54,480 bases of DNA. It comes from a phage. Shown here piece by piece: positions 3,501-48,142 of the stretch. The notes below the pieces were generated by a model. It saw only the letters and a list, made by a program, of their open reading frames with translations, searched no databases and was not told the DNA's origin. Position numbers and translations under genes: made by a program. The stretch's first letter is position 1, and the number at the start of each line of letters is the position of its first letter. The stretch lies in assembly GCA_018865545.1 (NCBI GenBank), contig GCA_018865545.1_3633.2. One strand, given 5' to 3'.

Positions 3501-3881
3501 TGGGTATCATAATTCTATCACACACTTAAACGCAAAGCAACATAAAAATTTTTGTTGAATGATAATCATTCTCATTTGCAGAATGACAGGTAGGATCGGT
3601 GTCTTATCCTCCCCCGTTGACCATCGTCGCCGTAGTTTGAAGTTTATAGCCGTTCTCGGCTTATCTCTTTGTTAGATATAGATTAACATAATTGATAAAG
3701 AAAGCAAGCGTTAATTGTAATCTTTACGTTTCTTTACAAATTTATTTTTGACGAGTTACCGGCGATCGACCTTCCAACCAGCGCCCTGGTATGTTAGCCC
3801 CGCCTTTACGCCGTGGGGATGGCGTTTCCTCTTCTGTATGTGAAACATTATAAGCCCGACCCCCGGGCTTGTCAAACATTT

Positions 3882-9660: not shown

Positions 9661-9695
9661 CGGTTGACAATACGCAATGATTGCTTATAATAACC
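9660..9695 (+). promoter_or_regulatory. promoter TTGACA-16-TATAAT
   Basis: Consensus hexamers at 9664-9669 and 9686-9691. Confidence 0.5.
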
Positions 9696-45766: not shown

Positions 45767-46200
45767 GTATTACCTAAATAATCTTTCAAATAGCTAACGT
45801 CAAGTTCCCATTCCTGACGCTTACTTCTCTCACGATACAGAGCAAACGCCTCTTCAACATATTTTTCGGCTACATGTTGAGGGATGTTGTTAACTTTCAT
45901 GAAATGCCTCAAAGCTATATGCCCTCTACCTCGTAAACTAGCCAAACCAATATGTTTAACTTCGTGACACGATGGGCATAGTGCAATAAGACCTTTCAGG
46001 GTGATCTTACCATCTTCAAAATCCCATACCTCGTGGCATTCAACAGGGTGTTTATGTCCTTTGCCACCGCAGATTTCACATTTATAACCTGCTTCTGCAT
46101 AACATTTCTTTCTTACCTTGTCCCATTCTGATTTTGATAAGTAAGAACGTAAATTGTTGAACCATGCCGTTTTAGGTACTAGTTCAATAGTTAATCTCAT
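45763..46200 (-). CDS. HNH endonuclease
   Basis: CEICGGKGHKHPVECHEVWDFEDGKITLKGLIALCPSCHEVKH HNH zinc-finger motif. Confidence 0.7.
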   Translation of the reverse strand: MRLTIELVPKTAWFNNLRSYLSKSEWDKVRKKCYAEAGYKCEICGGKGHKHPVECHEVWDFEDGKITLKGLIALCPSCHEVKHIGLASLRGRGHIALRHFMKVNNIPQHVAEKYVEEAFALYRERSKRQEWELDVSYLKDYLGNT

Positions 46201-46378
46201 TCCGATTTCTCCCGAAGTACATATGCAAAATTCTCATCCAACTGGGCATTGGTAAAAGAGCCAGCAGAGAACATATCATTAGTGCCTTCAAATCATAATC
46301 TTGACAAACAAGCCATCCAATGCTTACCAAACATAAAGACAGGATAAAACTTAACAACACTATTAACATATTTTTCAT
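46184..46378 (-). CDS. small membrane protein
   Basis: ORF track; hydrophobic. Confidence 0.35.
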   Translation of the reverse strand: MKNMLIVLLSFILSLCLVSIGWLVCQDYDLKALMICSLLALLPMPSWMRILHMYFGRNRNEINY

Positions 46379-46398: not shown

Positions 46399-46596
46399 TT
46401 AATGAAATATTCTTTTTGATGGGCAGCTTCCAGCACCTTCTTTAACCACTGTTTCTGTACTATGCCCATCGCTATAAATACAGACTTTGGAATCACCATC
46501 ACGATATTCTGCCTCAAGGCTCAAGGTGTTTGTGGTAGAAATTGCTAGAGGACTAAACAGAAGTGAGGACAGGAGGATAATGTTTTTAAATTTCAT
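46399..46596 (-). CDS. small secreted protein (signal peptide)
   Basis: ORF track 46399..46632; start moved to ATG46596 behind AGGTGG RBS; MKFKNIILLSSLLFSPLAIS signal-like. Confidence 0.4.
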   Translation of the reverse strand: MKFKNIILLSSLLFSPLAISTTNTLSLEAEYRDGDSKVCIYSDGHSTETVVKEGAGSCPSKRIFH

Positions 46597-46605
46597 TTTT
46601 ACCAC

Positions 46606-46637
46606 CTTTGAAAAAGCCCGATGAAAGCTCATCGGGC
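46606..46637 (-). terminator. rho-independent terminator
   Basis: On the minus strand, hairpin GCCCGATGAGCTTTCATCGGGC followed by TTTTT. Confidence 0.55.
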
Positions 46638-46647
46638 ATACGGTATA

Positions 46648-47538
46648 TTATTTACCTGTAGGTAATGTTACAAACGGGGCTTGTGCTCCACTAGTCATAT
46701 ACACAGGTGTTACACCATTCCATTTATTAATTGCTTCAAGCTGCATAATCTCTGGATTTTTACGCAGAGCAGCACCACGTAGTTCAATAGATTCTGCATC
46801 ACCTTTGGCAATCAAGATTTTAGCATCTGCTTCGCCTTGTGCTTGGAGTCGTTTAGACTCAGCCTCGCCACGAGCCGCCTCAATACGTTTCTGGGCTTCA
46901 GCTTTCACTTGCTGAATTTCGTTTTCACGAAGCAGTGCTTTTTGTGTCGCTTCGATTTTATCATTAATGGAAGCAGTCACCTTTGGCGGATACACAAGAT
47001 CGTCAGTATAAGAAAGTTTCACAAGCACAATACCAACAGGATCAAGTTTTTGTTTCAGATGCTTGGTTACGCTCTCAAGCAGTTGTGTTTTTCCATCACC
47101 AGTCAGTGTACCGATATCCATTGAACCAGCTTCTTTGATCAAAGCATCAGAGATATTCTGGCGAATGTTTACCTCTGTAATTTCTTGTACACCTTTACGG
47201 TACGTCTGGAAAATAGTCGTTACTTTAGAACGATCAACATAATATTCAACACCAATTTTCGCAGAAACTGTCATAGAGTCTTTTGTCTGGAAATTGAATG
47301 GTTGGTCATAGTTATGCAACTGGTTAAAAGTCGGGAACTGATAAATCTCTTCGTTCCAAGTCAGCCAGTACTTACCTACCCCAACCTCTTGTTGCTGGAC
47401 ACCTTTTTCATCACCGTACAGATCAACTTTAACGCCAACGTAACCTGCTGGAACGGTTGCACGCTCACAACCTGTGAGACCAATTGCAGAGACTGCAAGA
47501 ATACCTGCAAAAATAACTCGTTTAATAGATTTAAACAT
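46648..47538 (-). CDS. SPFH/band-7 (prohibitin-like) lipoprotein
   Basis: Lipobox-like LTGC near the N-terminus; C-terminal coiled coil EIQQVKAEAQKRIEAARGEAESKRLQAQGEADAKILIAKGDAES typical of band-7 proteins. Confidence 0.7.
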   Translation of the reverse strand: MFKSIKRVIFAGILAVSAIGLTGCERATVPAGYVGVKVDLYGDEKGVQQQEVGVGKYWLTWNEEIYQFPTFNQLHNYDQPFNFQTKDSMTVSAKIGVEYYVDRSKVTTIFQTYRKGVQEITEVNIRQNISDALIKEAGSMDIGTLTGDGKTQLLESVTKHLKQKLDPVGIVLVKLSYTDDLVYPPKVTASINDKIEATQKALLRENEIQQVKAEAQKRIEAARGEAESKRLQAQGEADAKILIAKGDAESIELRGAALRKNPEIMQLEAINKWNGVTPVYMTSGAQAPFVTLPTGK

Positions 47539-47551
47539 TAAACCAATCTCC

Positions 47552-47764
47552 TTACTTTTTACGTTTTCCAGTTTTCTTCTTAGAAGACTTGCCTAAGAAG
47601 ACCTTACGCCCCCAGACAAAAACAATCATCGGAGACACAAACAACATTGCAAAACCACACATTACCATCAGTGTGTCTTTTGCAGACAGCATTGTTGGTA
47701 CTACAAATCCAATGATGACACAGATAAAAACAAGAATACCAACGCAATTTAAATACGTCTTCAC
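47552..47764 (-). CDS. small membrane protein (possible NfeD-like partner of the SPFH protein)
   Basis: ORF track; two hydrophobic helices and a Lys-rich tail; immediately upstream of the SPFH gene. Confidence 0.4.
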   Translation of the reverse strand: MKTYLNCVGILVFICVIIGFVVPTMLSAKDTLMVMCGFAMLFVSPMIVFVWGRKVFLGKSSKKKTGKRKK

Positions 47765-47766
47765 AA

Positions 47767-48084
47767 TTATCCCTCACGACCAAACAGAATATCCACCTCA
47801 GCCATTTGCTCAACCTTTTCCTCAAGGTCTTTTCGCTTCTTACCCGCTTGGTATTGTCGGTCAAATTCTGCATTTATCATTGCATTGATAAATTTAGGGT
47901 CGTATCCGTGGCTTTCTTTTTCTACGGATACGATATCTTTAAGCATGTCACTTGCGTCTTTTTTCATGATGCGAGCTTCAACACCTTCCAAGATGACTTT
48001 TTTCAGTCGATCGCGCTCAACAGGATCAGAAGGTAAAGTATTTTTCAGTTCAATTTTTGTTTTAGGCATACGTGGCATTTTCAT
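47767..48084 (-). CDS. hypothetical protein
   Basis: ORF track. Confidence 0.45.
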   Translation of the reverse strand: MKMPRMPKTKIELKNTLPSDPVERDRLKKVILEGVEARIMKKDASDMLKDIVSVEKESHGYDPKFINAMINAEFDRQYQAGKKRKDLEEKVEQMAEVDILFGREG

Positions 48085-48142
48085 CTCCTCTGTCTACGTA
48101 TAAATTTAATTATAAAAATTTTATATGGTTTGTCAAGGGGTA

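Follow-up and report, generated by a model that had tools for sequence, protein, structure and literature searches.

With cage structures of HflK/HflC, QmcA, flotillin, prohibitin, erlin and stomatin dating from 2022–2026, SPFH (band-7) proteins are a current structural topic. In Escherichia coli, the tandem paralogues HflK and HflC, which carry N-terminal transmembrane helices, form an inner-membrane cage around FtsH (PDB 7vhp and 7wi3), and most of this cage is on the periplasmic side. The prohibitins PHB1 and PHB2 (8rrh and 9o9z) are held by transmembrane helices in a heteromeric ring; in mitochondria they face the intermembrane space, the equivalent of the periplasm, whereas the orientation of the bacterial p-prohibitins (SPFH4) has only been proposed. 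QmcA (8z5g) faces the cytoplasm and forms a two-gene unit with YbbJ, a small membrane protein that contains the oligonucleotide/oligosaccharide-binding (OB) fold of NfeD. Flotillin (9bq2), which is eukaryotic, cytoplasmic and heteromeric, is anchored by lipid to one leaflet and has no transmembrane helix (PMC12624060). Here, we analyse an SPFH lipoprotein gene of a phage, together with the small membrane protein gene directly upstream of it, on a stretch of 54,480 nt (GCA_018865545.1, contig GCA_018865545.1_3633.2; hereafter the window, to whose positions all coordinates refer).

SPFH or "band 7" lipoproteins of the same family are already annotated in phages; they include phrog_200, PVP-SE1 gp117, phiCbK gp180, proteins of Aeromonas phage Gekk3-15 and phage GIB1, and the "SPFH domain-containing protein" of the annotation pipeline PGAP in prophages of enterohaemorrhagic E. 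coli (EHEC). The gene of the window is a close relative of PVP-SE1 gp117 and not a new kind of gene. Unmentioned in the papers that we consulted are its obligate pairing with a hairpin membrane protein (phrog_1130), the distinction of this pair from SPFH–NfeD pairs, and the alternation between lipid and helix anchors within the family. A vague annotation becomes a defined and testable two-gene module, distinct from SPFH–NfeD, which occurs in lytic phages, in Shiga toxin (Stx)-converting and other prophages, and on plasmids. The reading that we prefer, and to which we give about an even chance of being right, is that the two proteins form a periplasmic SPFH cage with a hairpin co-subunit on the inner membrane, which would protect the envelope early in infection.

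The SPFH protein and its fold

The SPFH protein has 296 residues and is encoded on the minus strand at 46648..47538, behind an AAGGAG ribosome-binding site. A first-pass annotation of this region had called it a band-7 protein, and this identity is borne out by Pfam Band_7 (PF01145), which matches residues 28–215 with 72.8 bits against a gathering cutoff of 23.6 (E 4.8e-20), and by the phrog_200 "lipoprotein" profile (E 4.9e-86). The protein has 467 database relatives and is 89% identical to PVP-SE1 gp117. An AlphaFold2 model, built on an alignment of 66 relatives, has a mean predicted local distance difference test score (pLDDT) of 83.7 and consists of a signal helix, an alpha/beta SPFH domain at about residues 25–180, a 76-residue helix at 185–260, a further helix at 262–271 and short C-terminal strands. 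The cage-forming SPFH architecture, i.e., SPFH domain, long helix, second helix and C-terminal segment, is present in this model. When the model was compared with the PDB by Foldseek, full-length matches (270–316 aligned columns) were obtained to SPFH cage subunits, namely prohibitin (8rrh, E 1.8e-14), HflC/HflK (7vhq and 7wi3, E 6e-14 to 1e-10) and QmcA (8z5g, 5e-9), with further full-length matches to erlin, stomatin, flotillin and major vault protein.

A profile search with the family gave PHB1 as the top match (E 2.8e-5) and HflC and QmcA at about 1e-4, the SPFH classes being about equally distant, and the NCBIfam equivalog cutoffs were not reached for either HflK (47.9 vs. 159.4 bits) or HflC (22.7 vs. 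134.4 bits). Because it is equidistant from PHB1, HflC and QmcA and scores far under the HflK and HflC equivalog cutoffs, the protein is assigned on its sequence to an SPFH subfamily of its own and is no orthologue of HflK, HflC or QmcA.

While similar in fold to the described cages, the phage protein differs from each of them. HflK/HflC share with it the SPFH domain, the long wall helix, the second helix and the C-terminal cap segment, there is a weak NCBIfam match to HflK, and the bulk of the phage protein would lie on the same side of the inner membrane; however, HflK/HflC are tandem paralogues with transmembrane helices, whereas the phage protein comes from a single, phage-borne gene, has a lipoprotein signal peptide and is accompanied by an obligate hairpin of two transmembrane helices. 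The prohibitins, although they give the top match in both sequence and structure, are only about 20% identical to it, have a transmembrane-helix anchor and a heteromeric ring, and have no known hairpin partner; the p-prohibitins of SPFH4 resemble it in that no NfeD partner has been reported for them (PMC2636767). QmcA–YbbJ is similarly a unit of an SPFH gene and a small membrane protein gene, but QmcA faces the cytoplasm and YbbJ has no sequence relation to the hairpin. Flotillin offers both a fold match and a cage without a transmembrane helix, although its helical wall is much longer.

The C-terminal end carries the motif W273-x-G275-xx-P278...P288, all four named residues of which are invariant in the family alignment, despite the low confidence of the model over the last ~25 residues (pLDDT 54–64). 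This may be a segment that folds only within an oligomeric cap. The long helix varies in length among family members by blocks of 11 residues (alignment columns 239–249 and 260–270, window residues ~238–248), one of which occurs in Vequintavirinae and some Serratia-type proteins and another in P0083. Since 11 residues make up three turns of a helix, the wall of the putative cage may differ in height in discrete steps.

In public records, many homologues carry the name "serine protease" or "SPFH serine protease". The label apparently spread from phiP27 NP_543057, to which the PVP-SE1 note traces it. If these database records were taken at their word, the protein would be a protease; however, Band_7 is its only Pfam match at E ≤ 0.1, no protease family is matched, and the model is SPFH-plus-helices throughout. 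We regard the probability of a protease as negligible, and the propagated label as a misannotation that is hereby corrected.

The hairpin partner and the distribution of the pair

The first-pass annotation had also placed a two-helix membrane protein upstream of the SPFH gene, and such a protein is indeed encoded there. A 70-aa open reading frame (ORF) at 47552..47764 on the minus strand (GTG start, GAGG ribosome-binding site; phrog_1130 "membrane protein", E 4e-21) lies 13 nt upstream of the SPFH ORF. Its product has hydrophobic stretches at residues 2–29 and 31–52, a neutral six-residue loop, SAKDTL, and a lysine-rich C-tail with a charge of +10. By the positive-inside rule, the protein is predicted to be a hairpin with both termini in the cytoplasm (N-in/C-in) and a short periplasmic loop, and the AlphaFold2 model has two helices and zero strands (pLDDT 62.8). 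In an alignment of 24 diverse partners, Pro23 is the sole invariant residue, and at least 90% of the sequences share Ser27; the two define a P-x-[LM]-x-S motif where helix 1 ends on the periplasmic side. The basic C-tail is not conserved across the family.

The pairing was examined in 84 loci, comprising 80 fetched IMG/VR loci (of 443 relatives there), to which the loci of TH18, PVP-SE1 and Salmonella prophage were added. In 83 of them, the gene next to the SPFH gene on its upstream side encodes a partner and has the same orientation. In 71 loci it is a homologue, immediately upstream and on the same strand, recognised by an iterated hidden Markov model of the 70-aa protein; in 12 more, a 58–63-aa two-helix ORF with a related loop motif stands in the same place and was recognised by position, topology and motif. 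The exception (L060, 2727–3287) is a truncated pseudogene: the first ~52 codons of the SPFH gene are missing, and so is the partner ORF. Given the 467 relatives of the SPFH protein, its occurrence in 409 phage records and the recurrence of the hairpin ORF at this position in all but one of the 84 loci, both ORFs are genuine genes and not chance ORFs.

Start and stop codons overlap by 4 nt (ATGA type) in 39 of 69 pairs. The partner evolves far more rapidly than the SPFH protein, with a median identity of 21% vs. 62%, yet in a mirror-tree comparison their pairwise identities correlate (r = 0.73), which shows co-inheritance and not interaction. The pair also occurs in prophages of Salmonella, in Stx2a prophages and in phages from metagenomes and, as these loci indicate, is inherited, and lost, as a unit. 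Since it is conserved across unrelated phages, the functional unit of SPFH protein and small membrane protein that had been proposed for this locus is supported, whereas the secreted peptide that had been counted in it falls outside.

A sequence search with the 70-aa protein alone returned near-identical relatives only. A profile of the 24 locus-derived partners reached 57 clusters of 52–81 aa, none of them named, and in three of the four distant clusters that were checked a Band_7 gene lies directly downstream. The fourth, P0157 (L112, 3001–3207; 57 contigs in its cluster), was considered as a partner without an SPFH gene and rejected as such: it is the remnant of an in-frame deletion that joined ~51 N-terminal residues of the partner to the C-terminal 17 residues of the SPFH protein (LPQYMTGGATVPFVPVK). 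It is followed by an 869-aa ORF with Pfam matches to homing endonucleases (intein-like), which by eye resembles a large terminase.

The small gene is often unannotated. In the Stx2a-converting phage LC567840 (L110, 2316–2504), the partner is an unannotated 62-aa ORF with a 4-nt overlap with the SPFH start. In several assemblies (L085–L089), no gene was called just upstream of the SPFH gene, the partner apparently having been missed. Under-annotation of small genes thus hides the pairing.

A small membrane protein encoded next to an SPFH gene, co-oriented and co-inherited with it, recalls NfeD (PMC2636767), and the pair had been likened at first to bacterial SPFH–NfeD pairs. On that reading, the hairpin would act as a minimal NfeD, regulating or processing its SPFH neighbour. 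This arrangement is not family-defining by itself, and the NfeD identity of the partner is rejected. Neither the window protein (E ≤ 0.1) nor any of 24 family members (E ≤ 1) matched the NfeD Pfam models, the partner family profile did not match the YbbJ of 8z5g at E ≤ 10, and the model is all-helical without an OB fold, for which 55–75 aa would in any case be too short. At the level of family membership, the claim is refuted. Moreover, in a survey of prokaryotic SPFH operons, NfeD partners were confined to subfamilies SPFH1, 2 and 5; no such partner was found for the periplasm-facing HflK/C or for the p-prohibitins, whose periplasmic orientation is proposed and untested (PMC2636767). A tblastn search with a single query from related loci found no ClpP/S49-like protease gene in the window. 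Taken together, an SPFH–NfeD pair of the classical type is very improbable indeed.

The query of that search was a ClpP/S49-type gene, "SDH_protease + NfeD1b_N", which in one prophage lineage lies by the integrase gene, ~6 kb from the SPFH gene (L085, 175–963; L086, 339–1235; L087, 2–925). As tblastn detected nothing similar in the window and nothing at the remaining SPFH loci, its presence near the pair is probably a coincidence.

At E ≤ 1e-10, SPFH relatives are present in 409 of 50,697 phage records (about 0.8%). Among the hosts of these phages are Pseudomonas, Erwinia, Klebsiella, Escherichia, Burkholderia, Caulobacter and Salmonella, and the phages themselves include Stx2a phages and Lak megaphages. 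The records are labelled variously "lipoprotein", "SPFH domain protein", "serine protease", "QmcA" and, in one record, "outer membrane lipoprotein". Strictly lytic carriers belong to the Vequintavirinae, Schitoviridae and Bruynoghevirus, and temperate phages carry the module too. The E. coli prophage version of the pair has matches in 536 of 5,426 complete E. coli genomes (about 10%), with at least 80% of the query covered in 218 genomes; 199 of 618 places are on plasmids, and PGAP labels the pair "SPFH domain-containing protein | hypothetical protein". Among species-representative genomes, its occurrence is sporadic (17 loci, with strict search patterns). Such a spread is typical of mobile cargo. 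In two loci, genes linked to phage defence stand near the module: a Tad2-like gene on an Acinetobacter plasmid with a ParM-type partition gene (L088, 8811–9389), and a ThsB_TIR gene, on the opposite strand, in a metagenomic phage (L112, 1961–2446).

Membrane side and possible function

The lipobox-like N-terminus noted in the first pass proves to be a canonical lipoprotein signal peptide, MFKSIKRVIFAGILAVSAIGLTG followed by C, with the lipobox L-T-G-C. Residues 1–23 form the signal peptide, which consists of the n-region MFKSIKR, VIFAGILAVSAIG and LTG, and Cys24 follows; the codons of L21-T22-G23-C24 lie at 47467..47478 on the minus strand, and the residue at +2 is Glu. Because of this signal peptide, the SPFH protein is predicted to be exported, with the whole protein outside the cytoplasm and a lipid attached at Cys24. 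In a family set of 142 non-identical members, which was searched for the pattern [LVI][ASTVI][GAS]C near the N-terminus, a canonical lipobox is present in 75, 46 of them with LTGC, and, of the 75, 45 carry E at +2, 16 carry G and 10 carry D. The other 67 mostly have a hydrophobic N-terminus without Cys; a few show lipobox-like Cys motifs (LNGC, TSGC, LCGC and RTGC), and some have sites resembling those of signal peptidase I (AVA before N, or ALA before S). From the interchange of lipid anchor and signal anchor, together with the inner-membrane partner, we infer that the protein resides on the periplasmic face of the inner membrane. A lipid-anchored cage is plausible, flotillin being a precedent without a transmembrane helix (PMC12624060).

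The genomic contexts of the pair are, as far as gene order and promoter signals indicate, those of early or replication operons. In a Salmonella prophage, the pair lies between an Enc34-type single-stranded DNA-binding gene and a DNA polymerase gene, and in another prophage family it follows a Cro-like gene and precedes a primase gene. In the Stx2a-converting phage, it is co-directional with xis and int and just upstream of them, a locus that we read as a PL-like early operon. The operon of the window has an early-type promoter.

According to the reading that we prefer, the two genes would constitute an accessory module that is transcribed early by the host RNA polymerase from the consensus sigma-70 promoter. 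The SPFH protein would be exported and lipid-anchored at Cys24, so that its SPFH domain, long helix and C-terminal motif are in the periplasm, and by analogy with every solved full-length SPFH protein it would most likely assemble as a homo-oligomeric ring or dome, seated on the inner membrane from the periplasmic side. The hairpin, co-translated from the preceding and often overlapping ORF, would be a stoichiometric, membrane-embedded co-subunit, supplying the transmembrane "fence" or anchor that the lipid-anchored SPFH protein is missing, and its P-x-[LM]-x-S loop may contact the base of the cage. During infection, the complex would then ring off part of the inner membrane. Its output would be protection of the envelope in the early phase, i.e., blocking the entry of secondary phage DNA or resisting membrane insults, in a generic and host-independent manner. 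We favour generic protection because the module has an early position in lytic phages as well as in temperate ones, is an accessory that some lineages have lost by deletion, and is unusually conserved across hosts. The SPFH protein is 45–89% identical across phages of Enterobacterales, Aeromonas, Acinetobacter and Sutterella, and such conservation across hosts points to a target that is itself conserved and not to one particular receptor.

Early small membrane proteins and lipoproteins at the envelope are known from other phages, e.g., T4 Imm and Sp, T5 Llp, Cor, HK97 gp15 and TP-J34 Ltp, and are often receptor-specific. Unlike these exclusion proteins, with which no relation in sequence or fold was detected, the phage SPFH protein has a conserved scaffold fold.

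Several points weigh against a protective periplasmic cage. First, both cage formation and partner binding are drawn from analogy and gene linkage. Second, the module is not homologous to known exclusion proteins and has no meaningful PADLOC match, the sole match in the unit (SspF, E 0.0024, 15 bits) being read as chance. Third, it is dispensable, having been lost by deletion in some lineages (P0157, with L060 as a second independent decay). Fourth, the partner is poorly conserved (one invariant Pro) and could be a mere anchor or an unrelated co-expressed protein. Fifth, distant phage SPFH genes have no hairpin partner upstream: no upstream membrane ORF is present in phiEa21-4 or Streptococcus Javan521, whereas the upstream ORF encodes one helix in PaCe (Bruynoghevirus) and three helices in phiCbK. 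Since the upstream genes differ in these most distant phage SPFH loci, the obligate hairpin is, by these comparisons, the mark of a subfamily at roughly ≥45% identity to the SPFH protein of the window. Sixth, the genome papers on phage SPFH lipoproteins offer annotation and speculation only and term the role unclear (PMC13239085, PMC8540360 and PMC1524935).

The last point concerns the membrane itself and opens the way to a different explanation. Under the +2 rule of E. coli (Lol avoidance), Asp at +2 retains a lipoprotein in the inner membrane. The Glu at +2 here is no classical retention signal and by that rule would sort the SPFH lipoprotein to the outer membrane, apart from its inner-membrane partner. 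An SPFH lipoprotein of a Pasteurella prophage, possibly related to the present family, was reported in outer-membrane vesicles (PMC9872710). An early-expressed phage lipoprotein of this kind, labelled "outer membrane lipoprotein" in the one record mentioned above, could mask a receptor in the manner of T5 Llp or Cor, with the hairpin incidental. We consider this rather improbable. The canonical lipobox is absent from 67 of the 142 family members, most of which have no Cys at all, and the identity of 45–89% extends across host genera with different receptors, unlike that of fast-evolving, receptor-specific blockers. Furthermore, the fold is that of a full-length SPFH cage subunit, and an obligate inner-membrane partner would be left unexplained.

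The main rival to envelope protection is the modulation of FtsH. Here, the module would mimic HflK/HflC, its periplasmic cage capturing or modulating FtsH or another inner-membrane quality-control machine; it would stabilise CII-like regulators, sigma-32 or LpxC early and thus be a membrane counterpart of lambda CIII. The place of the Stx2a pair, just upstream of xis and int and co-directional with them, fits such a role, as lambda keeps cIII and other host-modulating genes in the region upstream of xis-int. The high conservation across hosts likewise fits a conserved target such as FtsH, and the predicted periplasmic orientation is that of HflK/C. In addition, the best relatives in sequence and structure, prohibitin and HflK/C, both partner FtsH-type AAA proteases (PMC2636767). 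However, the phage protein falls far short of the equivalog cutoffs for HflK and HflC and is no closer to them than to any other SPFH class; it is encoded by a single SPFH gene with no K/C pair, and strictly lytic phages carry the gene too (PMC8540360). On balance, we think that a mimic of HflK/C is unlikely.

Between superinfection exclusion and lysis timing, both of which the first-pass annotation had offered, lysis timing is the weaker. By that account, the hairpin would resemble a class II holin or pinholin, and the SPFH cage would restrain it as an antiholin does. Class II holins are typically small, with a two-helix N-in/C-in topology and a highly basic C-tail, and the 70-aa protein agrees with them in size, topology and tail. 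Sub-threshold Pfam holin matches were found in 3 of the 24 family members, but these are weak (best E 0.0091) and stand amid similar weak matches to unrelated membrane families, and the basic tail is not conserved. The promoter is of the early type, the genes neighbouring the unit (ligase, MazG-like, HNH and exonuclease genes) are of DNA metabolism and not of lysis, no endolysin gene adjoins it, and temperate phages carry the pair in early or replication operons. For these reasons, a function in lysis timing is quite improbable.

A wider reading, which we put forward tentatively and only as a joint proposal, is that a virus-encoded periplasmic cage, a distinct SPFH system with a co-subunit other than NfeD, walls off a patch of the inner membrane early in infection. 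Its role might be either the exclusion of phage DNA or of membrane-attacking defences, or the imprisonment of a host machine such as FtsH. Were the cage reading true, the module would amount to a widespread and unstudied membrane layer of phage–host conflict, present in ~0.8% of phages and ~10% of E. coli genomes. If the module keeps other phages out or acts on FtsH, this would have a bearing on cocktails for phage therapy, as PVP-SE1-like and other candidates carry it, and on the biology of EHEC prophages; if it has no measurable effect, it would be an ordinary accessory gene.

Transcription signals and neighbouring genes

The region is 95% identical to Escherichia phage vB_EcoM_TH18, whose taxonomy is Vequintavirinae, and to phages 18-1-2, 19-1-2 and 24-2-1, and TH18-type records label each of its genes "hypothetical". 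The genes of the unit are on the minus strand throughout, in the order promoter, 105-aa ORF, 70-aa hairpin, 296-aa SPFH protein, terminator, 65-aa peptide, 64-aa ORF and HNH endonuclease. The interval 46399–48084 as first described does contain the three genes assigned to it, although a fourth, the 105-aa gene that heads the operon, had been overlooked.

The operon is driven by a sigma-70 promoter, TTGACA-N16-TATAAT, at 48109..48136 on the minus strand, which matches the consensus at 12 of 12 positions; perfect matches of this kind occur three times in the window, compared with 0.04 expected. A promoter is annotated at the equivalent site in PVP-SE1, upstream of gp114. The other two perfect promoters (TTGACA-N16-18-TATAAT) are located at 3847–3875 (minus strand) and 9664–9691 (plus strand), and the spacer of the former is a GC-rich palindrome, GCCCGGGGGTCGGGC.

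An intrinsic terminator at 46616..46637 on the minus strand lies directly 3′ of the SPFH stop codon and closes the three-gene unit. Its 9-bp GC-rich stem, GCCCGATGA-GCTT-TCATCGGGC, is followed by TTTTT, and the RNA folds with −19.8 kcal/mol (z = −3.05). In PVP-SE1, a hairpin without a T-tract stands at the same place. No terminator was found after the peptide gene, so that the one at 46637–46616 is the sole downstream terminator. The hairpin, SPFH and peptide genes had been described as lying all between terminators; this is wrong, since the terminator separates the SPFH gene from the peptide gene, and the secreted peptide would be expressed at best by read-through.

A small protein with a signal peptide is encoded downstream of the SPFH gene, as had been proposed, but the start assigned to it at 46632 is 12 codons too early. 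The extra codons overlap the terminator hairpin and are unconserved among homologues, for which reason the most likely start is the ATG at 46596, with the ribosome-binding site AAAGGTGG, giving a 65-aa product (46399..46596, minus strand; phrog_4641, E 7e-23). Its signal peptide, MKFKN-IILLSSLLFSPL-AIS before T, ends in a small-x-small site, which is AFA before T in PVP-SE1-type homologues. The mature part of ~45 aa contains two conserved Cys in the motif C-x18-CPS-x-KTFH (nine homologues aligned). On this evidence, the ORF is a genuine conserved gene whose product is predicted to be Sec-secreted. A sequence search of the PDB with the peptide gave chance matches only. Its homologues were found in 11 of the 84 loci, all of them Vequintavirinae, and those of the 105-aa protein in 10, again all Vequintavirinae; both proteins were considered as parts of the module and rejected, as they are confined to Vequintavirinae loci.

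The PVP-SE1 gene order from gp114 to gp119 equals that of the window, with the addition of gp116 between the partner and the SPFH gene. This gp116 (L002, 4884–5048) is a 54-aa ORF of PVP-SE1-type phages, ribbon-helix-helix-like by eye, and is absent from the window. After the secreted-peptide gene, both phages have a small two-helix ORF: in the window, a 64-aa hydrophobic protein (46184..46378, minus strand) that has no detectable relatives beyond TH18-type phages, and in PVP-SE1, gp119 (L002, 3530–3733). The two are not detectably homologous, the position being conserved without the sequence.

The first gene of the operon (47767..48084, minus strand), 2 bases before the 70-aa ORF, encodes the 105-aa protein and matches phrog_639, "transcriptional regulator" (E 6.6e-20). 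Its best sequence match in the PDB, over residues 19–72, is to the UPF0335 protein 6cfx (E 0.055, weak), UPF0335 being the GapR family. The protein resembles the nucleoid-associated proteins of GapR/UPF0335 and is probably a DNA-binding protein of that kind. Some of its relatives in Vequintavirinae carry an acidic C-terminal extension.

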